Assembly: GCA_001029675.1 (NCBI GenBank)
Contig: CP011210.1
Span: forward strand, 948,891 to 1,012,890
Direction: 5' to 3'
Source of the DNA: Candidatus Beckwithbacteria bacterium GW2011_GWC1_49_16
GTDB lineage: Bacteria > Patescibacteriota > Microgenomatia > UBA1400 > CG1-02-47-37
DNA length: 64,000 nt
In this document: positions 5,920-62,696 of the stretch, in pieces
Numbering within the stretch: position 1 is the stretch's first letter
Layout of the letters: each line of letters opens with the position of its first letter
Translations under genes and position numbers: made by a program
The notes under the pieces: model-generated
What the model was told of the DNA's origin: nothing
Databases searched by the model: none
The model's input: the letters and a program-made list of their open reading frames with translations, nothing else

Positions 5920-6828
5920 ATGCCGGAACAACCAATACCAACACCAACGAGCCAACCCCCCGCCGCTAAACCTGCCTCGCCGGCAGGCGGGGCTTCGGCG
6001 GGTAAAGGGGAAAAGAAATGGCTGTTGTGGGGCCTGATTGGCTTTACGGTCATCTTACTTATCACCGCGGTGGTGTTGTTTTTACAGCTAAGAAAACCGG
6101 CGGAAGAACCGGCACCCAGAGTCAGGCCGACGCCGACTCCGGCGATACCGCCGGTTCAGGAAGTAACCGGAGCTGGCGTCTGCGAAACCACCTTCACCGT
6201 CACCGGGCCGACTTGTACCGGAGTGACGATTGATCCAACGGGTACCAGCGTTTCGGCCGGAGATGACCGGGAACTGACGGCAGAGGTAACCGGCGGGTCG
6301 GGGACGTACACCCATGAGTGGACGATTACCAGCGACGGGGCTGATGAGGGAGATTTAAGCTCAACTACCGCCAACCCGACGACCTGGACGGCGCCTGGCA
6401 GCTTAGATGAGTCTCAATCGTGGACGATTACCGATACTATTACCGATGCCGTAGGAGAAGATATTACTACCAGCTGCAGTGTAATTCTAAACTTTACCGG
6501 TTTGGTCGCCTGTTTTGATACCTGTGATACCGACCTAGACTGCGAAGAGGGCCTAAGTTGTACTGATGTGGCCGGTACTTTCCGCTGTGTCGATGCCAAT
6601 TGTCCCGAAGACGTTGATTGTAGTTGTGCCGACGCTTCGCCGTCGCCTTCACCGTCGGTGTCGCCGTCGCCAGGGGTATCTCCCTCGCCTACTCCGCCAG
6701 GCATAACCCAAGCGTCACCGTCGCCGAGAGTGGCTCAACCCGAGCTGCCCGAAGCCGGCTTCTCGGCGCCCTTGGTCATCGGCGTCGCCGGAGGAATTCT
6801 GTTGGTGATACTCGGTCTGTTGTTCTAA
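5920..6828 (+). CDS. Cys-rich surface protein with N-terminal TM anchor, (SP)n linker and C-terminal LPEAG plus hydrophobic tail
   Basis: TM at residues ~35-55; the CxDxDLDCEEGLSCTD module is paralogous to the previous gene; the C-terminus is ELPEAGFSAPLVIGVAGGILLVILGLLF. Confidence 0.5.
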   Translation: MPEQPIPTPTSQPPAAKPASPAGGASAGKGEKKWLLWGLIGFTVILLITAVVLFLQLRKPAEEPAPRVRPTPTPAIPPVQEVTGAGVCETTFTVTGPTCTGVTIDPTGTSVSAGDDRELTAEVTGGSGTYTHEWTITSDGADEGDLSSTTANPTTWTAPGSLDESQSWTITDTITDAVGEDITTSCSVILNFTGLVACFDTCDTDLDCEEGLSCTDVAGTFRCVDANCPEDVDCSCADASPSPSPSVSPSPGVSPSPTPPGITQASPSPRVAQPELPEAGFSAPLVIGVAGGILLVILGLLF

Positions 6829-6829
6829 A

Positions 6830-8068
6830 TTACTTCCAGGTCGGCAGCCAAAACCAATACTTAACCAAGTTTTTGGGGAGATGGACGGCGGTGTTAATTG
6901 GATAGAAGAAAAGAAAAAGAGCTACGACGATAGTCGTGTAGTAGATGATTAGTAGGCGACCTCGCTGGGGCGAGGTTTTTTGAAAGTCAATTAGCGCCCA
7001 GGCAATAATGATGGTAAGTAAGGATAGGGCCGGTAGGTAGTGGTGTAAGAAAAGAATTCTGGGGGAGAAAGACCAAGGCAACCAAAGAAGAAAATAACTG
7101 ACAAGAAGGTAGATCGTTGATCGTTGATGGCGGTAGAGGGCGTAGATCACGGCCACCAGTCCGCCCCAGAAAACGGCCGGGTTGCCCAGGTTATAAATGT
7201 TGGCGATGGTGTCTTTAGCATAGTCGACGTAAAACCAAACGGGACGAGCCAAAAGCGGCCACGTAAGGGCGGCGGTTTGGTAGTCGTGGGTGGCGGAAAG
7301 ACCGGTTTGGTACCAATAGATTTGCTGGTGGAGGTGGTAAAAGTCGATTAAGCTGTGGCCTTGAGCGAAAAACTGAAGGTAGGAAAGAAAGTAAATGACC
7401 ACAGGAATAATCAGTAAACTGTAAACCGTAATCAGTAACTTTTTAGGATTGGTAATTAAAACTTTTAGTTGGGGTAAAAGAAAAACGGCAAAGATGGGGT
7501 AGATGGCTAGGGCGGAGTGCTTGGTGGCAAGAGCCAAGCCGGTAAAGATGCCGGTGAGATAAAGATGTTTTAAGGTCCGACCTTTAAGAGCACGGTAAAA
7601 AAAGGTCAGCGCCAAAAGCATAAAGGTGGTGACGAAGATGTCGTTCATGGTGATTCTGGACATGGTGAGAGCGAGGCCGTCAAGCGAAAAAAAGGCGGCG
7701 GCCAAAAGCGACAGTTTAGGGTTTTTAAACAGGGCCTGGGCGAGAGTAAAAACCGCCGCCACGGCCAGGGTGCCGAAAAGGGCGCTGGGAAACCGCCAGG
7801 CAAAACTGTTATCGCCCAAAAGCTTGACCGAACCTGCCTGGATCAGTTTGGCCAGCGGCGGGTGAAGCCAATCATAAGCCGTCCCCTTTTCGGGGGGCTC
7901 GTGCCACCATTCGTAGCCGGCCGGATTATTTTCAGCGTGAGCCCGGACGGTGACGACATGATAGACTTCGTCAAAAACGTAGGCCGGCGGGATGCCAAGG
8001 CGGAAGACACGGACAACTAGGGTGAAAGTAAGTATTGCCCAAAATGCCTTGGTGTAAAATGACTTCAT
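6830..8068 (-). CDS. GT-C fold glycosyltransferase, PMT/ArnT-like (GT39/GT83 family)
   Basis: Polytopic membrane protein with a DE motif in the first periplasmic loop (YVFDEVYH). The start is probably the internal Met MKSFYTKAFW, which shares a CATG with the divergent gene at 8067. Confidence 0.6.
   Translation of the reverse strand: MKSFYTKAFWAILTFTLVVRVFRLGIPPAYVFDEVYHVVTVRAHAENNPAGYEWWHEPPEKGTAYDWLHPPLAKLIQAGSVKLLGDNSFAWRFPSALFGTLAVAAVFTLAQALFKNPKLSLLAAAFFSLDGLALTMSRITMNDIFVTTFMLLALTFFYRALKGRTLKHLYLTGIFTGLALATKHSALAIYPIFAVFLLPQLKVLITNPKKLLITVYSLLIIPVVIYFLSYLQFFAQGHSLIDFYHLHQQIYWYQTGLSATHDYQTAALTWPLLARPVWFYVDYAKDTIANIYNLGNPAVFWGGLVAVIYALYRHQRSTIYLLVSYFLLWLPWSFSPRILFLHHYLPALSLLTIIIAWALIDFQKTSPQRGRLLIIYYTTIVVALFLFFYPINTAVHLPKNLVKYWFWLPTWK
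7572..7584. repeat. Solo 13-mer AAGGTCCGACCTT inside the PMT-like glycosyltransferase coding sequence
   Basis: Exact 13/13 match to the repeat terminus, embedded as ...LKGRTLK... in the minus-strand protein. Confidence 0.7.
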
Positions 8069-9545
8069 GAGATTTATTGTAGCACTCACGTTTTGGGTAG
8101 TGGTATTTTGGTTAACTTTTAGCCAGACTATGTTCAGGCAAAATGACGGTGTTTTTGGCGCCTGCTCAAACTGCTGGGGCGATTGGTCGGCCCACACCAG
8201 CTACATGGCCTCGTTTGCCTTTGGGCGAAACTTTCCGCCCAGCTTACCGATTTTGGCCGGCGAAAAATTCAGCTATCCCTTTTTAGTGGATTTGATCACG
8301 GCCGGAGTGGTCAAGCTGGGAGTCGACTGGGTGAAAGCAATGGTGGCGGTCAGCTTAGTCACCGCGGTGGGGTTGGCGGGGGCGGTAATAGCTTTTGGCT
8401 GGAAGCTAACCGGTAAGTTTAAAATCGGGGTGGTAACGGCGCTGGTGTTTTTTTTAAACGGCGGCGTGGGCGAGTGGCAAAATCTTATTTCCTCCCAGGT
8501 CGTCCCCCAGCGGGGGCTGGCTCTGGGGATGACCATGGCCATCTGTGTCTACTGGTTGCTGTGGCAAAAGAAACTTTTTTGGGCGGGGGTGGTGGCAGGT
8601 TTGTTGCCGCTGGTTCACGCCCATTCGTTTATGGCGGTAGTCTTGGTGGCGGGGGGGCTAGGGGGCTGGCGAGTGATCAGAGCAAAAAATAAAACCAAGG
8701 AAATTTCAGCCTGGTTGGCTTTTGCTGTCCCGGCGTTGATTCTGGGCGGGGCGCAGGTGAGGTATTTTTACGCCGGGGTCTTGGGCCAAAACTTTGTCAG
8801 GTGGCAACCAGGCTGGCTGGCTGGCGGCGGCCTTTGGGGCTGGGCCTGGTTTTGGCTCAAAAACGCGGGGCTGGTCTTGGTTTTGGCAACAGCAGGCTGG
8901 TGGCTGGCTCCAAAAAATCTCCAGCGTTTTAGCCTGGTATTCTGGGGGTTGTTTTTTCTGGCTAACTTAGTCGTCTTTCAACCTTGGGATTGGGACAACA
9001 CTAAAATGTTGACCCACTGGCATTTAATGGCTTCGGTGCTGGCGGCCGGGGTAATCGTCAGGTTTTTTGACCATAAACGCTGGTTGGTAAAAATCTTAGG
9101 AGTGGGGGTGTTGGTTGCCAGTGTTTGGTTTGGATCGGTTAAGGTCGTGGCCATTGCCAAAGGGGAAAATCAGTATCGCTTTTGGGATAAAAACCAAATC
9201 GAAGCCGCGGCTTGGGTCAAAGACAATACCCCTCCCCGAGCAGTGTTTTTGACCGCTTCAAACCATGATCACTGGCTGCTTCCACTCACCGGCAGAAAAA
9301 TCGTCATCGGTTACCCGGGCTGGCTGTGGACTTACGGGCTTAACTACAGTCAGCGGGAAAAAGAAGTCGGAGAAATTTTTGGCGGCGGACAGACGGCAGA
9401 CAGCCTAATGGACAAATACCGGGTCGACTACGTCGTTTTAGGGCCGGAAGAAAAAAGACTCGACTCTATCAACCAGGAATATTTCCAAACCAAGTTGACT
9501 GAAGTTTACCAGCTTGAGGACTACCAAGTCTTTGCGGTCAACTAA
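8067..9545 (+). CDS. Polytopic integral membrane protein with C-terminal soluble domain (putative GT-C-type glycosyltransferase)
   Basis: About 11 predicted TM helices followed by a ~130-aa soluble C-terminal domain; sits in the glycosyltransferase neighbourhood. Confidence 0.4.
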   Translation: MRFIVALTFWVVVFWLTFSQTMFRQNDGVFGACSNCWGDWSAHTSYMASFAFGRNFPPSLPILAGEKFSYPFLVDLITAGVVKLGVDWVKAMVAVSLVTAVGLAGAVIAFGWKLTGKFKIGVVTALVFFLNGGVGEWQNLISSQVVPQRGLALGMTMAICVYWLLWQKKLFWAGVVAGLLPLVHAHSFMAVVLVAGGLGGWRVIRAKNKTKEISAWLAFAVPALILGGAQVRYFYAGVLGQNFVRWQPGWLAGGGLWGWAWFWLKNAGLVLVLATAGWWLAPKNLQRFSLVFWGLFFLANLVVFQPWDWDNTKMLTHWHLMASVLAAGVIVRFFDHKRWLVKILGVGVLVASVWFGSVKVVAIAKGENQYRFWDKNQIEAAAWVKDNTPPRAVFLTASNHDHWLLPLTGRKIVIGYPGWLWTYGLNYSQREKEVGEIFGGGQTADSLMDKYRVDYVVLGPEEKRLDSINQEYFQTKLTEVYQLEDYQVFAVN

Positions 9546-10755: not shown

Positions 10756-11819
10756 GGCGTCTGATTTTGGTAGAAGAGCTCGTCGATGTAGTCGTGAACA
10801 AGAGTCCAATCGTTGTCGACGGGGATTAAGACCCAAGCACCATAAAGGCTGTCGGGCGGGTGGTAAAGTAGCGGCGGGATGTCTTCGACTTCACTCCCCT
10901 GGTTTAAAATTCCGGTTCTTAAGCTGTCCTGGTCAACCCGGAGCGCCAGCTTGGCCAAATCGGACCAGCTTTTTTGAGGAATGTCGGTTTTGACCGAGGC
11001 AGAAAATATTTGGTAGAGACCTTTAACCTTTTTTAGGCTCAAGAATACCTTCGGGCTCAAGAGTTTTTTCTTGAAGCTCAAGATGACCCGCTGTTGGCGC
11101 TGGGAGCGGGCGTAGTCGGTGCCTTCTTCGCCGGCGGCGTTACGGGACCTAATGTACTTTAAAGCCGTGACGCCGTCCATGACTTGGCTGCCGGCTTTAA
11201 ATTCGACGGTTTGGTAGCGGTCGGATTCGGGCTCGGCGTTTTCTTTGCCAGGGATGGGGTATTTGGCATCGACGAAGCCGTGGGGAACGTCGACGCTGAT
11301 GCCGCCGACGATGTCGATGGCTTTTTCAAAACCGGAAAAATCGAGTAAGGCGGCGTAGTGGACTGGCTGGTTGACGATTTCGGCAACGGCGGCTCGGGAC
11401 AAAGTCAAACCCCCGCCGTCCAATTTGCCCTCGCCGTAAAAGTAGGCGGTGTTTAGTTTGGCTTGGAGCGACTCGACCCAAATGTCCCGGGGCAGCGAGA
11501 CCAAAACGGCGTCGCCGCTTAAAAGTTCAACGGAGATAAGCATGATGCTATCGGTTAACTCTCCCCCGGGGTGGTCGCCGCCGGCGACGCCTAAGAGCAA
11601 AAAGTTCGTCCGGCCCTTGAAACTTTCAAGGCTGGTGACGCTGGGGTTCAAAAAGGAGACGGCGGCGGCCGGGCCGCGGGCAAGATTTTTTAAGCCTCTC
11701 CCCAGGGCCGGGGAAAGGAGGATGACTAAGCTCAAAAAGACAGCGACGGCAAGCAAATAAGTTAGGGGGCGGACCAACCACAGGTGTTTATAAAGGCGGC
11801 GTCTCAATTTGGGGAACAT
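10752..11819 (-). CDS. LCP family (LytR-CpsA-Psr) cell-wall glycopolymer phosphotransferase
   Basis: N-terminal TM helix, then FLLLGVAGGDHPGGELTDSIMLISV...VSLPRDIWV...LNTAYFYG, the LCP core motifs. Confidence 0.75.
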   Translation of the reverse strand: MFPKLRRRLYKHLWLVRPLTYLLAVAVFLSLVILLSPALGRGLKNLARGPAAAVSFLNPSVTSLESFKGRTNFLLLGVAGGDHPGGELTDSIMLISVELLSGDAVLVSLPRDIWVESLQAKLNTAYFYGEGKLDGGGLTLSRAAVAEIVNQPVHYAALLDFSGFEKAIDIVGGISVDVPHGFVDAKYPIPGKENAEPESDRYQTVEFKAGSQVMDGVTALKYIRSRNAAGEEGTDYARSQRQQRVILSFKKKLLSPKVFLSLKKVKGLYQIFSASVKTDIPQKSWSDLAKLALRVDQDSLRTGILNQGSEVEDIPPLLYHPPDSLYGAWVLIPVDNDWTLVHDYIDELFYQNQTP

Positions 11820-39296: not shown

Positions 39297-39750
39297 AAGT
39301 AATATCTAAGGGTTTGAGGTTGAGGCGTCGGTAAAATTTGATGGCGCGGGTGTTTTTATAATAGCAGTTCACCTGGAGAGTGCGGAGGTTGTTTTGGCGA
39401 CACCAACTTTTAAAAGCGGCAATGAGCCTGGCGCCTACTTTTTGAGATCGGTACTGGGGGAGAACGCCGATGTTTTCCAGCTCGGCTACGCTTCTAGTGC
39501 GATAAAAAAATGCTTTCTTTTTGCCGTTGAGGTAGCCCGCTGGTTTTCCGTCAATTTCGGCGATTAAGCAGCAGAATTTTTTATCCGAGGTAATTTCTTT
39601 TAAATATTTTGTCCCTGCGCGGGTAAACTCCCAGTCTGGATTGAAAAAGGGGTCAAACCGGCTGTTGGCAGTAAAAATTTCGTGGTTTAATTTTTGAATT
39701 TTTTTCCAGTCTTTGAGCTTGGCTTTTCTGATTTTTACAGGAGGGCTCAT
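39280..39750 (-). CDS. GNAT family N-acetyltransferase
   Basis: ...[21 protein letters not shown]... CoA-binding motif. Confidence 0.7.
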
Positions 39751-41135
39751 TTAATTGATTGTAACATTTTGCTGGTAGAGACCCTTGGGTTGTGGGGTAA
39801 AACGACTTTGAGGCGGCCGCCTAATTTTTCCATGATGCGGCGTTTTTCTTTCTGGTTGGGGGTGCTGGCGGAGACGGCCAGGATGTCGGGGCGAATTTTT
39901 TTGATGAGGGCCTCGTGGGCGGCGGGAGAGAAAAATTTCTCCGGCAGGGCAAAGACTTGGTCGGCAATTTTCAAGCGGCGCAAGTTAATCAAGCGCCGGC
40001 TGATGGGGTTGATCGGCCGACCCGGGCCCTTAAGCAGGCTAACCCGGGTGTCGGACTCGACGCCGACTAATAAAATGTCGCCCTGTTTTTTGGCGGCCTT
40101 TAAAAATTTTACGTGTTCTGGATGGAGAATATCGAAAACGCCGGTGGCGAGAACTTTTCCTCTTTCCTTCCCAATAAGGTCCGACCTTTCGCCTGCCGGC
40201 GAGCCCTTCTCGGCTGGCAGCCGGGAATTCCTGTTAAGGTCGGACCTTGATAGCCTAGACAGACGCTGGCGGTATTTTTTCATGACGATTTGGCCGGTGG
40301 GGCGGGGGTGAAAAAAGGCCTGGTGGGGGCCTACCCTTTCGCGGGTAATTTTTGGCTTCATGTACCAAAGTTGGAGGCGGAAGGCGAAGGACTCCAACCA
40401 ATCAATAAGGTCTGACCTTCCCCGATGTGACTTCGGGGGCACCTTCTCGGCTTGCAGCCGGGAATTCCTGTTAAGGTCAGACCTTTGTAAGCGAAAAGAG
40501 TTCGGGAGAAAGCGGGTTACCCAAGAATTGGAGGCAATAAATTTTTGGTAAGTGCCATCTTTGTTAATCAAGGGTTTGACTTGAGCCACTTCGTGGGCGG
40601 TGTAAAGGTTGCGACGAGAGGCGGGTACGGCCAAAGCCGATTCGTCCAGCCAGAGATTAAGACAAAGTTTGTCGGCCACCTCCGAGGAATCCATTCGGCC
40701 ACCTCGGAGGTGAGGAAACAATAAAATCGTTGCCAGCAAGCGGGTGAGCCAGAGGCGATTTTTTGAGGTAACCACCATCAAATCAATGTCGTCGTTTTTG
40801 TCGGCATTCTTCATGGCCAGAGCGCCGGTGACGGCGACCAGCCTGACCGTCGGAATCAGTTTTAACCAGCCGGCGACGCGGCGGGCTAACCTAAGCTTGG
40901 CGGCCGAGATTTGGGCGCGGCGGCGGCGGAGAGCCACTAAATGAGAACGGCCTTTGAGGTGGAAATATCGGCTGGTCTTTACTATAAGGTCCGACCCACC
41001 CTGCGGGTAAATAGCGCCTGCGGCGCTTTCCTTAATGGGTCGGACCTTTAAGTCGCCGGCTATCTGCCACCTAATAATTTCGCTAGCAGTCAGCGGGTAA
41101 TCAAAAATATCCGCGTAGGCGACGGTCTTAAACAT
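39747..41135 (-). CDS. Composite ORF: N-terminal minimal nucleotidyltransferase (Pol-beta-like) domain plus C-terminal RfaE-domain-II-like cytidylyl/adenylyltransferase, with three in-frame palindromic repeat insertions; may be two genes
   Basis: N-terminus YADIFDYPLT...GALAMKNADKNDDIDLMVV. C-terminus ...GVFDILHPEHVKFL...LLKGPGRPINP (cf. GxFDxxHxGH and KGPGRPVNP of HldE/RfaE). The repeats are translated as RSDLNRNSRL... Confidence 0.4.
   Translation of the reverse strand: MFKTVAYADIFDYPLTASEIIRWQIAGDLKVRPIKESAAGAIYPQGGSDLIVKTSRYFHLKGRSHLVALRRRRAQISAAKLRLARRVAGWLKLIPTVRLVAVTGALAMKNADKNDDIDLMVVTSKNRLWLTRLLATILLFPHLRGGRMDSSEVADKLCLNLWLDESALAVPASRRNLYTAHEVAQVKPLINKDGTYQKFIASNSWVTRFLPNSFRLQRSDLNRNSRLQAEKVPPKSHRGRSDLIDWLESFAFRLQLWYMKPKITRERVGPHQAFFHPRPTGQIVMKKYRQRLSRLSRSDLNRNSRLPAEKGSPAGERSDLIGKERGKVLATGVFDILHPEHVKFLKAAKKQGDILLVGVESDTRVSLLKGPGRPINPISRRLINLRRLKIADQVFALPEKFFSPAAHEALIKKIRPDILAVSASTPNQKEKRRIMEKLGGRLKVVLPHNPRVSTSKMLQSIK
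40176..40248. repeat. Miniature palindromic repeat, copy a (AAGGTCCGACCTT ... AAGGTCGGACCTT)
   Basis: 13-bp terminal inverted repeats read directly. Its internal core is shared with copy b. Confidence 0.8.
40407..40485. repeat. Miniature palindromic repeat, copy b (AAGGTCTGACCTT ... AAGGTCAGACCTT)
   Basis: Shares a 45-bp core (cttctcggctKgcagccgggaattcctgttaaggtcRgacctt) with copy a at about 42/45 identity. Confidence 0.8.
40985..41048. repeat. Miniature palindromic repeat, copy c (AAGGTCCGACC ... GGGTCGGACCTT), with a different internal segment
   Basis: The same terminal inverted-repeat motif bounds a distinct ~40-bp internal sequence, which is itself a palindrome (ccctgcgg...gcgcctgcggcgc). 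Confidence 0.65.
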
Positions 41136-42676
41136 TACTTATTGGCGGCTAGACCATACTGGGACAGAACCTGGCTGACACCCTGGGAGAGGGTGTCGGT
41201 GATTTTTTTCTCGGGCTCGTTTTTAAGGTAGGAGTTGATGGCATCTTGGTAGTATTTAATCAGCCGGTCGTTTAAGCCGTTGTCAAAGGTGCGGTCGGCC
41301 AAAGGCCAGGATTGGGCCGAAACGGCTTGGGTGATGATGGCGCCCAAAAAGGGGTCTTCTTGAATGGCGGCGGTCATGTCCTGGCGGGGGTAGGGCTCGC
41401 CGAAAAGGCGTTCCTTGCCGGCCAGGTCGTGCATTTTTAACAGCGTTTCTTTGGAGCTTAGGTATTTGAGAAAGTCCCAGGCGGCGGCTTGGGAGTCGGA
41501 CTTTTTAGAGACGCCTTCGAGCCAGTAAGTGGCCCAAGTGATGTTGGTGCCTGGCAGCTGGGGTACGGGATAGAGTCTGAAGTTTAACTCGGGGTTTAGA
41601 GCTTTGATTTCCAAAGCGCGCCAGGAGGGGGCAAAAATCATGGCCACTTTTTCGTCGGCAAAAGCCAGGGTGGAGTTGGGCAGCTTTTCGTTCCAGGAAC
41701 CGTCTTGGGTGGTAAACAGGGTATAAAACTTTAAGGCGGAAGTGACGGTGGTTTGGTCAGGCTTGGTGGGGTCACCGCCGTTTTGAAGAATCATTAATCC
41801 TAAAATGTCGGAGAAATGGTCGACGTTGTTGGTGGTGCCCAAAGCGATGCCGCCGACGAGTAAGTTGCCTTTGGCGTCTTTTTGGGCCAGTTTGAAGGCG
41901 GTGCTTCTAAGATTGTCCCAAGTGGTGGGAATTTTGAGGTCGGCGTTTTGGGCAAAGATACTTTGGTTGACGTAGAGGGCTAAGGCATCAAACTCTAAGG
42001 GAATGCCGTAAAAATTGCCATTGGTAAAGGCGTCTCTTCTAACGATGGGGTAGAAGGTGGTGTCAAACTCGTTTGGCGAGTAGATGTTTTCGGGAACAGA
42101 AGCCAGGTCGGCTTTGAGCATAGGCAGCCAGGTATTGTGCCAGCGGAATATGTCGGGGCCCTCATTTCGGGCCAGGGCCGATTGGAGGCGATCGCGATAA
42201 TCCTTAGGCGACTGGCGGGTGTAGTTGACGGTAATGTTGGGGTGATCTTGGCGGTAGTCTTCGATGATTTTGGCCATGATGCTCTCCGGTTCCCACAAGC
42301 CCCAATAGTCAAGGGTGACAACGTCTGGTTCAGGGGCCTTTCTGAAACGGGGCAAGATGACTTTGGTGACTAAAAGTCCCAGCAGAATAACGACGATCAG
42401 GCCGATGATGACGGGGAAAAAGCGCTTGAAAAACGGTTCAGCCACCGGCGGGGCTTGGGCGGGCTCACCGGGCGGTGGCGTGGGCGGCGGCTGATCTATT
42501 GGTGGGGGCGGGACAGGTTGGGATTGCTGCTCCGCACTTTGGATCGGAAAGGGGGGGCTTTCCGGCGGCGGCGGAACTGGCGGCGGAGCGGCCGGGGGCG
42601 AAACCGGAGGAGTTTGAGTGGGATCGTCGGGCATATATGTTATCATCTTAACAACAGGTGATAGTTGAAGCAACAT
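41135..42676 (-). CDS. ABC transporter extracellular solute-binding protein (family 1, sugar-type) with a Pro-rich N-terminal region
   Basis: Pro-rich tract, a TM/signal anchor, then a ...DYWGLWEPES...DIFRWHNTWLPML... SBP-1 fold. Confidence 0.65.
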   Translation of the reverse strand: MLLQLSPVVKMITYMPDDPTQTPPVSPPAAPPPVPPPPESPPFPIQSAEQQSQPVPPPPIDQPPPTPPPGEPAQAPPVAEPFFKRFFPVIIGLIVVILLGLLVTKVILPRFRKAPEPDVVTLDYWGLWEPESIMAKIIEDYRQDHPNITVNYTRQSPKDYRDRLQSALARNEGPDIFRWHNTWLPMLKADLASVPENIYSPNEFDTTFYPIVRRDAFTNGNFYGIPLEFDALALYVNQSIFAQNADLKIPTTWDNLRSTAFKLAQKDAKGNLLVGGIALGTTNNVDHFSDILGLMILQNGGDPTKPDQTTVTSALKFYTLFTTQDGSWNEKLPNSTLAFADEKVAMIFAPSWRALEIKALNPELNFRLYPVPQLPGTNITWATYWLEGVSKKSDSQAAAWDFLKYLSSKETLLKMHDLAGKERLFGEPYPRQDMTAAIQEDPFLGAIITQAVSAQSWPLADRTFDNGLNDRLIKYYQDAINSYLKNEPEKKITDTLSQGVSQVLSQYGLAANK

Positions 42677-52174: not shown

Positions 52175-52244
52175 AAGGACAGACCTTCCAGCTTCGCTGT
52201 CCCGGCTTGGCCGTTGGCCACGCCTCCTGTTAAGGTCTGGCCTT
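52175..52244. repeat. Degenerate copy of the same repeat family in the valS 5' leader
   Basis: AAGGACAGACCTTcc...cctgttAAGGTCTGGCCTT; it shares cctgttaaggtc with copies a/b and gaccttcc with copy b. Confidence 0.6.
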
Positions 52245-52262: not shown

Positions 52263-54494
52263 ATGGATAAGCGTTACCAGCCGGACCTGTTTGAGGATAA
52301 AATTTATCGAGACTGGGAGAAGTCGGGGACTTTTACCCCCAAGGCTAAAGGCGAGGCCTACTCGATCATCATGCCGCCGCCAAATGCCAACGATCCGCTT
52401 CATATCGGCCACGCCTGTTTTGTCACTTTAGAGGACATCTACGCCAGGTTTGAAAGGATGCGGGGCAAATCGGTTTTGTGGCTGCCGGGGACAGACCATG
52501 CCGGCATCGAAACCCAGTACGTCTTTGAAAAACGCTTGAAAAAAGAGGGTAAGAGCCGATTTGATTTTGACCGGGGAACTCTCTACCGGATGATTTGGGA
52601 TTACGTTGAGGAAAACTCGGGAACGGCGATAAAACAGATGAAAAAATTGGGGGCAAGCGCCGATTGGAGCCGGACCAAGTTTACTTTAGATAAAGACGTG
52701 GTCGCGATGGTGGTGGACACTTTCAAAAAACTCTACGATGACGGCTTGGTGTACCGGGAAGTGCGCTTGGTTAACTACTGTACTTCTTGCGGCACGGCCT
52801 TCTCTAACCTGGAGGTGAAGCACGTCGAAAGAGTAAGTCCCCTTTACTACATGAAGTACGGGCCGTTTACCCTGGCGACCACCAGGCCGGAGACCAAGTT
52901 CGGTGATACGGCCATCGAGGTTCACCCCGACGACAAACGTTACCAAAAATGGATCGGCCAAGAAGTCGAGGTCAAAGGTTTGGCGGGTAAGTTCAAGATG
53001 CGGGTGATTGCCGACAGAAGAGTAGACCGGAAGTTTGGCACCGGGGTGGTCAAGGTGACGCCGGCTCACGACTTTAATGATTTTGACGTTTACCTCAAAC
53101 ACAAGAAAGAGGTGCCGGGGCCAAAGCAGGTCATCGGCTTTGACGGCCGGATGAACCAGCTTGCCGGAAAGTACCAAGGACTAAAGGTGATGGAGGCAAG
53201 AAAAGCGGTGGTGGCCGACTTGACCAAGCGGGGCTTAATGGAAAAGGTGGATGAAACCTACCGGAATACCATCGGCGTCTGTTACCGCTGTGGCACAACG
53301 ATCGAGCCTTTACCCCTGCCCCAGTTTTATATCAAGGTAAAACCCCTAACCCAAAGGGCTTTGCGGGCATTAAAAGAGAAAAAAGTGAAGATCTTTGGCG
53401 CCGGCTACGACAAAATTTTGAACCACTGGCTCAAGAGCCTTGACGACTGGAACGTCAGCCGCCAAATCGTTTGGGGCATTCGCTTGCCTATATGGTATGA
53501 GGCTGATAAAAATCCGGAGGTTGAAGTTAAGTTTTTGAACAAAGACAAAAAACTCATAAGCGACCAGGTGGGCGAGTTGTTGAAAAATTATTCGTTGGCA
53601 GAGATAAAACGGGGCTTGCAAAGCCTGCGGGCGCCGCTCACGGCCAAGTTTACCGTCTCCCCTACCTCGCCGGGAGAAAATTTCCTCCAAGAAACCGATA
53701 CCTTTGACACTTGGTTTTCCAGTTCCCAGTGGCCGTTGGTTACCCTGAAGACAAGCAGATTTAAAGATGACTTTAAACGCTTTTACCCCACTAGCCTCAT
53801 GGAGACGGCTTACGACATTTTGATTTTCTGGGTGATGCGGATGCTTTTTATGGGACTTTACTTAACCGGCAAGGTACCTTTTGAAAAGGTTTATCTTCAC
53901 GGCTTGATCCGCGACGAAAAGGGGCAGAAGATGAGTAAGTCTAAGGGAAACGTGGTCGATCCGGTCGAGGTAATCCAAAAATACGGCGCCGACGCCTTAA
54001 GGATGGCTTTGGTAATTCGGTCAACGGCAGGCCGAGACAAAAACGTCGGCGACGATGATATCAGAGGCATGCGCAACTTGACTAACAAGATCTGGAATGC
54101 GGCCCGGTTTGTGATCGTGTCCAATAATACCCACTCAGAACACTCCCGGAGTGGGGTTGCGCCTGCGGCACACTCCGGGAGTGATAGCGACCTGAAAGAT
54201 GAAAAATTTAAGAAGGAGCTGTCCGGCGTGGTGAAGCAAATCACCGACCAGCTTGAAGCGATGAAGCCGGGGCTGGCGGCGGAAACGGTTTATTTCTACT
54301 TCTGGCACTGGTTTTGCGATGAATGTATTGAGCAGAACAAGCAGGGTAAAATTTCGCCACTAGCTTTGATCAAAGGTTTGCGGGTGTTTTTGAAGCTTTT
54401 ACATCCTTTTGTGCCGTTTGTAACCGAGGCAGTCTGGAGGCAGTTGCCCAAGACCGAGGAAAAATTACTGATTGGCGCCCAATGGCCCGCCTGA
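52263..54494 (+). CDS. valS: Valyl-tRNA synthetase
   Basis: PPPNANDPLHIGHA (HIGH), LPGTDHAGIETQ (the ValS hallmark) and KMSKSKGN. The start is taken at MDKRYQPD; the ORF-track start at 52167 reads through the palindromic repeat. Confidence 0.85.
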   Translation: MDKRYQPDLFEDKIYRDWEKSGTFTPKAKGEAYSIIMPPPNANDPLHIGHACFVTLEDIYARFERMRGKSVLWLPGTDHAGIETQYVFEKRLKKEGKSRFDFDRGTLYRMIWDYVEENSGTAIKQMKKLGASADWSRTKFTLDKDVVAMVVDTFKKLYDDGLVYREVRLVNYCTSCGTAFSNLEVKHVERVSPLYYMKYGPFTLATTRPETKFGDTAIEVHPDDKRYQKWIGQEVEVKGLAGKFKMRVIADRRVDRKFGTGVVKVTPAHDFNDFDVYLKHKKEVPGPKQVIGFDGRMNQLAGKYQGLKVMEARKAVVADLTKRGLMEKVDETYRNTIGVCYRCGTTIEPLPLPQFYIKVKPLTQRALRALKEKKVKIFGAGYDKILNHWLKSLDDWNVSRQIVWGIRLPIWYEADKNPEVEVKFLNKDKKLISDQVGELLKNYSLAEIKRGLQSLRAPLTAKFTVSPTSPGENFLQETDTFDTWFSSSQWPLVTLKTSRFKDDFKRFYPTSLMETAYDILIFWVMRMLFMGLYLTGKVPFEKVYLHGLIRDEKGQKMSKSKGNVVDPVEVIQKYGADALRMALVIRSTAGRDKNVGDDDIRGMRNLTNKIWNAARFVIVSNNTHSEHSRSGVAPAAHSGSDSDLKDEKFKKELSGVVKQITDQLEAMKPGLAAETVYFYFWHWFCDECIEQNKQGKISPLALIKGLRVFLKLLHPFVPFVTEAVWRQLPKTEEKLLIGAQWPA

Positions 54495-61162: not shown

Positions 61163-61199
61163 AATTTAGCCAAGTATATATTACTTTGCTTTTCCCAAC

Positions 61200-61212
61200 A
61201 AGGTCCGACCTT
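61200..61212. repeat. Solo 13-mer AAGGTCCGACCTT in the rpmH–dnaA intergenic (origin-proximal) region
   Basis: Exact match; it lies ~37 bp from a perfect DnaA box. Confidence 0.7.
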
Positions 61213-61248
61213 GTTGTTAATTTTCGTGTATTGTTGGTGTTGACGGGG

Positions 61249-61292: not shown

Positions 61293-62696
61293 ATGAATAA
61301 TGAGTCGTTGTGGTCGGCGGTGAGAAGCGAGCTTGAGTTAAACTTGTCGCCGGGAAACTTTGCTACTTGGATTGCGCCTCTGGCGCTTTTATCGCTTAAA
61401 GAAAGCGGTGGTAAGTCAATATTGACGATCGCCTGCCCGTCGGTGTTTCATAAAAACCAGATTAGCGAGCGGTATTTGGGCCAGATAGCGGCAGTGGCGG
61501 AAAAGGCATTAAAGAAAAAGTGTGAGATTAAACTAGCGGTGAAGCAGCGGGCGGTAAAGCAAAAAAAGGGCCGGCGGGGGAGCGGTGAGGGCGAAGATTT
61601 GTTTTCGGTAGACATAGCCAAAATGGAAAGGGAGGCTTATCTTGAGGCGGCGGCCAGGGTGGGCTTGTCTGCCGCGCTGACTTTCAAAAACTTTGCCGTC
61701 TCCGGCTCCAACGAGGTGGCTCACGCGGCGGCGAGAACTGCGGCCAAAAGCCCGGGGCAAGTGTATCGGCTCGTCTTTGTTTATGGCGGGGTGGGGGTGG
61801 GCAAAACCCACCTGATGCAAGCGGTGGGGCACGAGATTCTAGCCAAAAACCCTGACGCGGCGGTGGTGTATTGCACCGGCGAGGAATTTACCAACGAGAT
61901 CATTGAAGCGATCAGAAATAAAACCACGGCCAACTTTCGCCACAAGTACCGCCAGGCTAGGGTGCTACTTTTAGATGACGTCCAGTTTATCGGAGGAAAA
62001 GAAACGGTTCAGGAAGAGTTTTTCCACACTTTTAACGCGGTCCATAAAGAGGGGGGCCAGGTGGTTTTGACCAGCGATCGGCTGCCAAATGAAATCGCCG
62101 GGCTTGAGGATAGGCTTAGGTCGCGGTTTGAGGGGGGGCTGACGGTAGATATCCAACCGCCGGGGTTTGAGTTGAGGACGGCAATTTTACTGATTAAGGC
62201 CCAGCAGCTCAATATGGAACTGCCAATGAGGGTGGCCCAGGTGGTGGCGGCCAACGTAGAATCAACCCGAAAACTTGAGGGGGTGCTTCTAAGGCTTAGC
62301 GGAGAACAGGTGGCTAAAAAAGAGGCCCTGACCGAAGAGCTGGCGATGGCGCTACTTAATAAAATCAACGGCGAGACGGTAAGACTTAAAAGCCGGGTGA
62401 CGGCGACGCAGGTGGTGCGCCTGGTGGCGGAATACTACCAGCTAAAGACTACCGACATTCGGGGAGAACGACGGCTTAAAACGGTGGCCTTGCCGCGGCA
62501 GGTCGTGATGTACCTTTTGCGTAAGGAGCTGCGGCTGTCTTTGAAAGAAGTGGGTCGGGTTTTGGGCGGAAGGGACCATTCGACGGTGCTTCACGGACAA
62601 GAAAAAGTCTCCCGGCTTCTTTCCGAGTCGGAAGATTTGCGCCTCGATGTTATCAACATTAGAAAGCAAATTTATCAAAACAGGGGAAAGGTTTAA
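61293..62696 (+). CDS. dnaA: Chromosomal replication initiator DnaA
   Basis: AAA+ Walker A GGVGVGKTHL and the C-terminal DNA-binding domain. Confidence 0.95.
   Translation: MNNESLWSAVRSELELNLSPGNFATWIAPLALLSLKESGGKSILTIACPSVFHKNQISERYLGQIAAVAEKALKKKCEIKLAVKQRAVKQKKGRRGSGEGEDLFSVDIAKMEREAYLEAAARVGLSAALTFKNFAVSGSNEVAHAAARTAAKSPGQVYRLVFVYGGVGVGKTHLMQAVGHEILAKNPDAAVVYCTGEEFTNEIIEAIRNKTTANFRHKYRQARVLLLDDVQFIGGKETVQEEFFHTFNAVHKEGGQVVLTSDRLPNEIAGLEDRLRSRFEGGLTVDIQPPGFELRTAILLIKAQQLNMELPMRVAQVVAANVESTRKLEGVLLRLSGEQVAKKEALTEELAMALLNKINGETVRLKSRVTATQVVRLVAEYYQLKTTDIRGERRLKTVALPRQVVMYLLRKELRLSLKEVGRVLGGRDHSTVLHGQEKVSRLLSESEDLRLDVINIRKQIYQNRGKV

Follow-up and report, generated by a model that had tools for sequence, protein, structure and literature searches.

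We analyzed a stretch of 64,000 nucleotides (hereafter, the window) from Candidatus Beckwithbacteria bacterium GW2011_GWC1_49_16 (contig CP011210.1, positions 948,891 to 1,012,890), in which one minus-strand open reading frame (ORF), 39747-41135, is crossed by three palindromic DNA segments, termed here elements a, b, and c. According to our analysis, these segments are probably copies of a repeat family of Patescibacteria that resembles repetitive extragenic palindromes (REPs) and their inverted doublets (REPINs), that lies in frame within genes, and that is spread by an enzyme of the REP-associated tyrosine transposase (RAYT) type. We assign this reading a probability of roughly two in three.

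The ORF encodes 462 amino acids and, as a preceding sequence-only reading of the window had stated, it runs through all three elements without a stop codon (Table 1; ORF contexts are mechanical calls, stop to stop). The doublets a–c span 63–79 nt, are inverted and in frame, and the peptides read from them are RSDLNRNSRLPAEKGSPAGERSDL, RSDLNRNSRLQAEKVPPKSHRGRSDL, and KVRPIKESAAGAIYPQGGSDL. In elements a and b the 13-nt arms, here AAGGTCNGACCTT, are perfectly complementary with a covarying central base (C/G; T/A), and the two copies have in common a 44-nt stretch at 95% identity, which includes GGAATTCC and had been recognized earlier. The proposal that all three elements are bounded by this 13-mer held for a and b; the arms of element c (AAGGTCCGACCCA / TGGGTCGGACCTT, 15–18 nt) share only an 11-nt core with them. 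The interior of c is a single GCGCC..GGCGC hairpin, and its covariance score is 33 bits on the minus strand vs. 19 bits on the plus strand.

The over-representation of the 13-mer is evident within the window: AAGGTCNGACCTT was counted six times (at 7572, 40176, 40236, 40407, 40473, and 61200) against an expectation of 0.01, and none of 100 shuffles reached that number. Of the eight occurrences of the 9-nt core GGTCNGACC, six lie within a single gene. A covariance model built from relatives of the elements in other genomes found exactly four copies across the 64 kb, namely a, b, c, and an intergenic element d at 52175-52244, and the minus strand outscored the plus strand for each of them. The sequence-only reading had listed 52175-52244 and 61200 as more divergent non-coding copies; the former is indeed non-coding and is a full fourth copy (87 bits), and the latter is a singlet within a 21-nt palindrome. 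The top strand of element d lies on the minus strand, as in a–c, and its ATTGG tag is at the opposite end. An in-frame singlet at 7572-7584 was absent from the earlier list.

All four doublets fold, as hairpin prediction for each copy confirmed. The fold consists of a closing stem of 13–15 bp with inner hairpins (two per copy in folding), and the z-scores lie between -3.4 and -6.3 on either strand, whether RNA or DNA parameters are used. The RNA folding energy of the hairpins within the coding region is -37 to -43 kcal/mol. In the search against Rfam 15, the sole match at the gathering threshold in the whole window was a tRNA, and the region 39700-41200 yielded nothing relevant to E 10.

Table 1. 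Palindromic repeats in the 64-kb window and the gene that carries elements a–c.
Feature	Position	Strand	Family or context	Details
Host ORF	39747..41135	-	Elements c, b, a and a doublet of the second family	462 aa; nucleotidyltransferase-like N-terminal domain and cytidylyltransferase (PF01467) C-terminal domain
Element a	40171..40248 incl. tail (arms 40176-40248)	-	Family 2B; interdomain linker	Covariance model 89 bits; top strand AAGGTCCGACCTT-AACAGGAA-hairpin-hairpin-AAGGTCGGACCTT, then ATTGG tail; codes for RSDLNRNSRLPAEKGSPAGERSDLIG
Element b	40402..40485 incl. ATTGA tail (arms 40407-40485)	-	Family 2B, third hairpin longer	64.6 bits; codes for RSDLNRNSRLQAEKVPPKSHRGRSDLID
Element c	40984..41050 (arms 40986-41048)	-	c-type; near the N-terminus of the ORF	Codes for KVRPIKESAAGAIYPQGGSDL
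Element d	52175..52244	-	Family 2A; intergenic, between two + strand genes	87 bits
Singlet AAGGTCCGACCTT	7572..7584		In frame in membrane-protein ORF 6830-8197(-)	Peptide ALKGRTLKH
Singlet widened to a 21-nt perfect palindrome, CAACAAGGTCCGACCTTGTTG	61196..61216		Intergenic, just upstream of dnaA-like ORF 61293-62696	
Second palindrome-doublet family, CACCTCCGAGG... / CACCTCGGAGGTG	40677..40712	-	Same ORF 39747-41135, in frame	Peptide LRGGRMDSSEV
Third palindrome-doublet family, CACTCCCGGAGTG-17 nt-CACTCCGGGAGTG	54141..54183	+	In frame in ValS-like ORF 52264-54494	Peptide EHSRSGVAPAAHSGSD

The sequence-only reading had seen two different enzymes in the host protein. The cytidylyltransferase is borne out by a Pfam match to CTP_transf_like at residues 329-435 (E 6.6e-11), and the N-terminal nucleotidyltransferase (NTase) shows only weak Polbeta/NTP_transf_2 signals. 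The two-domain architecture is common to dozens of Patescibacterial homologues of 396–464 amino acids. Because the same architecture is found in so many orthologues, the NTase-cytidylyltransferase fusion is ancestral and not a product of the elements, and the ORF, described earlier as composite, is not so on their account.

In the protein alignment, orthologues at 50–60% identity bear differing short inserts in the same variable loops, with recurring peptides such as NRNSRLPAEKG.., KGRSLTGDPAEGRVGTAKPEG.., QGPTLK..RSDP, GSDP..GSDP, and HLRGERSSHLGG. At the DNA level these same-loop inserts are palindromic, and the same peptide without a palindrome was not what the orthologues carried. In the AlphaFold2 model, the predicted local distance difference test (pLDDT) falls below 50 at residues 28-47, 203-241, and 296-323, corresponding to elements c, b, and a, and is 88–95 for the domains between them; four further stretches are also below 50 (147-153, 167-171, 174-192, and 258-278), and since the alignment behind the model is shallow, it carries supporting weight only.

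The comparison of nucleotides is more telling. When the window is compared with its orthologue L118 (loci from other genomes are cited by number), identity reaches 90% in element c and 86% in element b, and the 5' 44 nt of element b match completely (100%); the remainder of the gene stands at 64%, with 79% in its best 63-nt window. L119 has 87% identity to L118 once the elements are set aside; in the elements themselves, 39 nt are missing from the interior of its copy of c, and site b is occupied by another type of element. Minimal doublets of 44 nt occupy site b in the orthologues L129 and L130. On the aligned sequences, such excess conservation, together with the turnover, would not fit neutral loop DNA, and homogenization within a repeat family, re-insertion, or constraint at the nucleotide level is required.

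The surroundings of the host gene are conserved in synteny, with an SBP gene, the NTase-cytidylyltransferase gene, and then VIT1, Fic, and Cpn10/60 genes nearby. In the five syntenic loci (L118, L119, L129, L130, and the window), the doublets are concentrated in the NTase-cytidylyltransferase gene, with one to four in each, and the flanking 9–21 kb contain none; the gene stands out as a hot spot, or as a refuge of long standing, for doublets. The second doublet family of Table 1 recurs at another site (HLRGERSSHLGG) in L129, at 10814-10850.

Public genomes were scanned for two GGTCNGACC palindromes 35–65 nt apart, and loci were picked by this pattern alone; the resulting copy-number and distribution figures are lower bounds, biased to perfect arms. 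At least 117 doublet loci were recovered, mostly in Patescibacteria and often several per genome. A metagenome scan with the strict family-2 pattern gave at least nine loci, and no doublets were found in the viral contigs scanned. From the pattern scans and the covariance model, about 50 oriented relatives were obtained from public genomes and metagenomes; the metagenome-assembled genomes JAHITH01, CAJAUT01, and JBDRPO01 are among the carriers of family 2. The consensus of the top strand of family 2 reads AAGG-N5-CCTT / AACAGGAG / hairpin with a conserved C·A or A·A mismatch / GGGA / hairpin / (G/A)AAGG-N5'-CCTT / ATTGG. The junction nucleotides AACAGGAG and GGGA are invariant across genomes of 38–51% GC, and in the variants inspected the arms are themselves palindromic (4-6-bp arms).

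About 25 of the 47 oriented relatives lie inside ORFs. The host genes of families 2A and 2B are of at least seven unrelated kinds, including the NTase-cytidylyltransferase fusion, an O-antigen-ligase-like membrane protein (with three copies), PMT-like glycosyltransferases, an RNase H-like protein, a ClpB-like ATPase/protein, and integrase-like proteins. In all in-ORF copies the frame is kept and the frame used is free of stops. The peptide is not constant: depending on the gene, a single type of element yields RTLLDRRHGQRPSWDSKAGRRVL or KGRSLTGDLAESQVGTAKPEGASL on translation, and family 2 is read in two sense frames and once in antisense (L123), in addition to its intergenic copies. A profile search with a 52-aa element peptide retrieved three proteins and an exhaustive search with 32 aa three representatives, short queries being short of bits. 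The unit length (core plus 5) is a multiple of 3 in the 19 copies of the 2A/2B type (70, 73, or 79 nt); as a general rule this was rejected, since units of 71 nt (L124 type) and 74 nt (L044 type) break it.

The stems of these relatives covary. Pairing is retained in 98.9% of cells vs. 79.7% in shuffles, and the covariation score is 0.50 vs. 0.14 in shuffles (none of 500 as high), with slid controls at or below 0.08. All 56 changed stem cells are two-sided, and one-sided changes of the G·U type are absent from 280 cells; therefore, Watson-Crick pairing on both strands, i.e., in DNA, fits better than an RNA helix. Because the repeats are used in several frames, in antisense, and between genes, are conserved in excess of their host gene, and covary in their stems, they are a DNA-level element and not a protein repeat. 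On this point the earlier reading, which had likened them to the in-frame palindromic elements of Rickettsia, is upheld.

An explanation in terms of an ordinary protein-level repeat or a low-complexity linker, with incidental palindromes in the DNA, is accordingly very improbable. The position of the segments in variable loops, where an insert of some kind is frequent at the same places in orthologues, would suit it. However, it is difficult to reconcile with unrelated peptides being read from the same DNA in different frames or on the opposite strand, with non-coding copies, with significant stem covariation, and with element nucleotides that are better conserved than the folded domains.

The link to a transposase comes from other genomes. 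At 15 of the 117 pattern-selected loci, a Y1/HUH transposase gene lies directly beside the palindromes, mostly with palindromes on both sides of the gene (L033, L009, L032, L072, L018, L092, L098, and L086, among others), and such palindrome-flanked genes were found in Saccharibacteria, Kaiserbacteria, Lloydbacteria, Parcubacteria, and other groups. A first lead was obtained by tblastn with approximate IS608/IS200 TnpA queries, which gave marginal matches only (L033, E 0.17). The proteins carry the motifs YHxYNRG, LMPNHFHLL, and YIHLNPV, and they match Pfam Y1_Tnp as well as the NCBIfam model REP_Tyr_transpos (NF047646), with E values from 1e-13 to 2.6e-6. For L033 the Y1_Tnp score is 22.2 vs. 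a cut-off of 23, and many homologues have a precomputed PF01797 match. In a profile search against the PDB, the best match was 4ER8, E. coli TnpA-REP (E 2.7e-4), followed by ISDra2 TnpA (E 0.16); phmmer with one RAYT-like protein gave no match in the PDB. The Kaiserbacteria/Paceibacteria type forms a conserved family of about 236 aa, with 62–81% identity among the best 120 of 490 homologues.

The repeats that flank these genes have the common core AAGGTCNGACCTT with lineage-specific outer arms (GTG..CAC, GTAC..GTAC, TATA..TATA, and CTGTC..GACAG). In L085, an altered core, GCGTAAGTCTGACTTACGC, adjoins its own RAYT-like gene, as expected for co-evolving partners. A Y1 gene bracketed by palindromes is the defining arrangement of REP/REPIN-RAYT systems (PMC5581495, PMC6006769). 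RAYT-like genes flanked by palindromes of the GGTCNGACC type were also noticed in Anoxybacillus (L104), Emticicia (L008), and Rubritalea (L013), and the pairing is thus broader than the Candidate Phyla Radiation (CPR).

Several other arrangements of the same palindrome were observed along the way. A conserved intergenic element of 87–97 nt ("Fam1": L001, L014, L017, L041, L048, L054, L067, L083, and L117) has the same terminal palindrome and the ATTGG tail; its interior differs from family 2 and is well conserved (..GTCGACTAAACAT..), and the Rfam searches covered other loci. Outside Patescibacteria, the Verrucomicrobia metagenome-assembled genome (MAG) CAMNLW01 (L002, L023, L025, L029, and L068) contains tandem arrays of the palindrome with a 22-bp period, AAAAGGTCNGACC(TTTT), which look iteron-like or like arrays of binding sites. 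In L040 (Kaiserbacteria), two near-identical 57-nt doublets (6619-6675 and 7389-7445) bracket an ORF of 165 aa (6771-7268) with no Pfam match, which may represent cargo or another repeat-flanked gene.

The insertion sites are informative about the type of mechanism. Among 19 independent copies, no target-site duplication was found in 17 directly at the ends and in 17 past the 5-nt tail, the exceptions being three chance matches of 2 nt and one match of 5 nt in L090. A TA target duplication is likewise absent. The loci L121 and L126 were considered as an element swap in identical genes and set aside, the part upstream being a diverged mosaic, so that the comparison is not clean. Downstream of the first element site, L121 4816-6189 and L126 2555-3946 match completely (100%), vs. 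only about 80% upstream of it, and the breakpoint of the recombination or mosaic falls at the element.

The orientation of the elements is strongly biased. Counted over 47 copies on about 30 contigs, the C-rich strand bears the element's top strand 41 times and the G-rich strand twice, and four copies lie in a flat background. The GC skew is strand-wide, with the same sign for genes of either strand; in the window, the skew of the + strand is about +0.02 to +0.22 in every 4-kb segment over the 64 kb, whatever the gene orientation. Element d and the copies in L054, L117, and L123 are antisense to the local genes, yet they obey the skew rule. The G-rich strand is usually the leading strand, and if this holds here, the complementary strand of the element (5'-CCAAT, then the element) lies on the lagging-strand template. 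Y1 transposases act on the lagging-strand template (Quentin, 2018, PMC6006769). The bias toward the C-rich strand therefore fits single-strand transposition of the Y1 type, with the tie between skew and replication being assumed. An origin next to dnaA was rejected as an anchor for assigning the strands, since the GC skew has no switch there. We read the orientation as the outcome of a strand-specific mechanism together with selection on the orientation that is tolerated in transcripts and proteins.

Taken together, these data suggest the following course of events. The unit of the family is the short palindrome AAGG-N5-CCTT, two inverted units of which enclose one or two small hairpins, and with the 5-nt tail (consensus ATTGG) after the second unit, a single strand folds into a 13-15-bp stem with a branched loop. 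Spread and homogenization would proceed through cutting and joining of single-stranded DNA by a RAYT-type enzyme at the replication fork, without target duplication; this route is the most likely one because the same 13-mer flanks a Y1/HUH gene, with RAYTs as its nearest relatives, in other Patescibacteria. In the Microgenomates-type lineage of the window, the doublets appear to have settled in genes, in variable loops and linkers, with the frame kept and no stops in the frame used. The inserts are most likely translated into short, hydrophilic, and disordered peptides and would be neutral, and their persistence in a host gene would depend on tolerant loops, on keeping the frame, and on hydrophilic, unstructured products. 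The data show the repeat family with its fold and covariation, its reading in several frames, the intergenic copies, a nucleotide conservation above that of the host gene, the RAYT-like neighbors in relatives, and the biased orientation. The mobility proposed by the sequence-only reading is something that we infer, and so are a RAYT in this genome, the single-strand mechanism, and the translation and neutrality of the inserts.

Several points weigh against this reading. No clean pair of a filled and an empty site was found. There is no RAYT-like gene in the 64-kb window or at any family-2 locus, and the link to this genome consists in the shared 13-mer; moreover, the RAYT-like proteins score 27–51 bits with NF047646, under the curated cut-off of 80, and are relatives rather than certified RAYTs. 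In the window, dnaA is not accompanied by a switch in the GC skew, and equating skew with the direction of replication is an assumption. The copies in ORFs have a sense bias of about 25 to 1–2, and the intergenic copies also lean toward sense (eight with both neighbors in sense vs. one with both in antisense). Translation of the inserts is presumed. The occupation of the same loop in many orthologues could alternatively reflect an ancient insertion followed by gene conversion. Finally, the classical GTAG/CGTC tag is absent from the flank listings as judged by eye, and classical REPINs are almost always extragenic (Bertels, 2017, PMC5581495).

The sense bias also speaks for the strongest alternative, which we nevertheless consider unlikely, that the repeats, rather than being selfish mobile DNA, form a structured nucleic-acid module under selection, retained within and between genes for its usefulness. 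Classical REPs have been described as mRNA-stabilizing or processing hairpins, and the module could be such a hairpin, a protein-binding site in the transcript, a ribosome pause site (with an AGGAG resembling a Shine-Dalgarno sequence), or a strand-specific signal in single-stranded DNA at the fork. Besides the mostly sense orientation in ORFs and between genes, the invariant junction nucleotides AACAGGAG and GGGA, the C·A/A·A mismatch conserved in one helix across genomes of 38–51% GC, and a nucleotide conservation far above that of the host gene speak for it, and RAYT-REPIN systems generally behave as long-lived, vertically inherited partners (PMC5581495). However, the absence of any Rfam family even to E 10, the fact that none of 280 cells has a G·U pair, a rarity among RNA helices, and the equally good folding of both strands do not suit a transcript-borne structure. 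The four copies that are antisense to local genes but follow the strand-skew rule (d, L054, L117, and L123) point in the same direction, and near-identical copies in unrelated genes are hard to square with a gene-specific function.

A conventional transposable element of the miniature inverted-repeat type (MITE), Correia-like or Tc1/IS630-like, with terminal inverted repeats read on double-stranded DNA by a DDE transposase in trans, is still less probable. The small size, the multiple copies, the perfect 13-15-bp terminal inverted repeats, and the TA often seen in the flanks (as TAAGGTC...GACCTTA) resemble such elements. But target-site duplication is missing from the 19 independent copies whether or not the 5-nt tail is counted, the terminal repeats are palindromes in their own right, singlets exist, and the orientation is strongly biased relative to strand composition; in addition, the sole gene that is recurrently bracketed encodes a Y1/HUH enzyme and not a DDE transposase. 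A resemblance to the terminal repeat of Tn3-like elements was dismissed, as it extends over 8 nt only.

It is also very doubtful that the segments are mini-introns or are passed over by translational bypass, so that peptides spanning RSDLNRNSRLPAEK would never be present in the protein: the hairpins in the coding region are very stable, which would suit it, but the in-ORF copies keep the frame and have no stops, which would be needless if they were spliced or bypassed, and no bulge-helix-bulge, ribozyme, or intron family was matched. Among more specific candidates, an archaeal-type bulge-helix-bulge intron was rejected because the stem has no bulges, a hammerhead or another small ribozyme because the junction sequences do not fit and Rfam gave no match, and an integron attC site because there is no GTTRRRY at the 3' end.

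By definition, REP and REPIN sequences are extragenic, and most work on them concerns Proteobacteria; for in-frame palindromic inserts, Rickettsia is the best-known case. The interpretation of elements a–c as RAYT-spread, REP-like repeats joins these two themes, with a REP-like palindrome that brackets RAYT-like genes across Patescibacteria and that, in ultra-small genomes, also occurs as doublets within the reading frames of enzymes, chaperones, and membrane proteins. Should this interpretation be confirmed, it would offer a testable mechanism for the entry of palindromic repeats into coding sequences and their persistence there, it would mean that episymbiont genomes of about 1 Mb maintain a repeat-transposase partnership, and it would caution annotators against taking for lineage-specific protein features the many unusual loops and seemingly low-complexity inserts of CPR proteins that are repeat DNA. 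Owing to strict Watson-Crick covariation and strand-locked orientation, the repeats could possibly serve as markers of replication direction in fragmentary MAGs.

A wider proposal is more speculative, and we would currently bet against it, namely that Patescibacteria have a conserved, phylum-wide RAYT-REPIN partnership, the repeats of which are adapted to life within genes through frame-preserving spacings, open sense frames, and hydrophilic products. If true, "selfish DNA in proteins" of the Rickettsia type, inserted in frame, would owe its spread to single-strand transposases of the HUH/Y1 type acting at the replication fork. The conserved core of the three-way junction may in addition provide the host with a strand-specific signal in DNA or RNA. 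A description of intragenic, in-frame REPINs of this kind in Patescibacteria was not found in the literature searched, the coverage of which was incomplete, so that an earlier description is possible.

Among known systems, the Correia, ERIC, and other bacterial MITEs are similar in being small, in having inverted-repeat ends, in being often co-transcribed with genes, and in being occasionally intragenic. They differ in having target-site duplications and DDE-type parents, neither of which was found here; since target-site duplication is lacking, a mechanism of the Correia type does not fit, and the comparison with Correia-like elements made in the sequence-only reading is not supported. The IS200/IS605 elements and their miniature derivatives, the palindrome-associated transposable elements (PATEs), are closer. 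They share the Y1/HUH superfamily, hairpin-based recognition, the absence of target duplication, a conserved pentanucleotide at one end (CCAAT on the complementary strand), and an orientation tied to the replication strands (PMC6006769). However, the two ends of the elements in the window are complementary to each other, no TnpB or parent of insertion-sequence size was seen, and the profile match to ISDra2 TnpA is marginal (E 0.16 vs. 2.7e-4 for TnpA-REP).

The Rickettsia palindromic elements are in-frame palindromic repeats of about 100–150 nt found in many proteins, with non-coding copies as well (reviewed in PMC10969869). By description, they share with the present family in-frame insertion into unrelated protein genes, where they are apparently tolerated as extra surface peptides. 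The differences are the host phylum, the length (63–79 nt in the window vs. about 100–150 nt), and the connection to a transposase, which is not made in that review, whereas the family in the window shares its terminal palindrome with RAYT-flanking repeats.

The REP/REPIN-RAYT systems of E. coli, Pseudomonas, and Stenotrophomonas have a short palindromic unit that occurs as singlets and as inverted doublets folding into a hairpin, the same unit brackets a Y1/HUH gene (here, in other genomes), TnpA-REP (4ER8) is the best relative in the PDB, target duplication is absent, and the repeats are clustered. REPINs "almost always" have an extragenic position (PMC5581495); in contrast, genes of the window harbor copies a, b, and c, as well as the singlet at 7572, in frame. 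The GTAG/CGTC tetranucleotide at the 5' foot of the hairpin is not visible by eye, and most family-2 copies have instead a 3' ATTGG (CCAAT on the other strand). Furthermore, the unit is only 13 nt long, the spacer contains extra conserved hairpins that give a three-way junction, and the transposase relatives, known from other genomes, are below the curated RAYT score. Because the elements deviate in not being extragenic and in lacking the GTAG/CGTC tag, and because the enzymes are under the RAYT threshold, we do not regard the family as a plain member of the REPs. Overall, its anatomy is closest to that of REPINs and its behavior is like that of the Rickettsia palindromic elements, and, as to mechanism, REP/REPIN with a Y1 transposase of the RAYT type is the class nearest to it.

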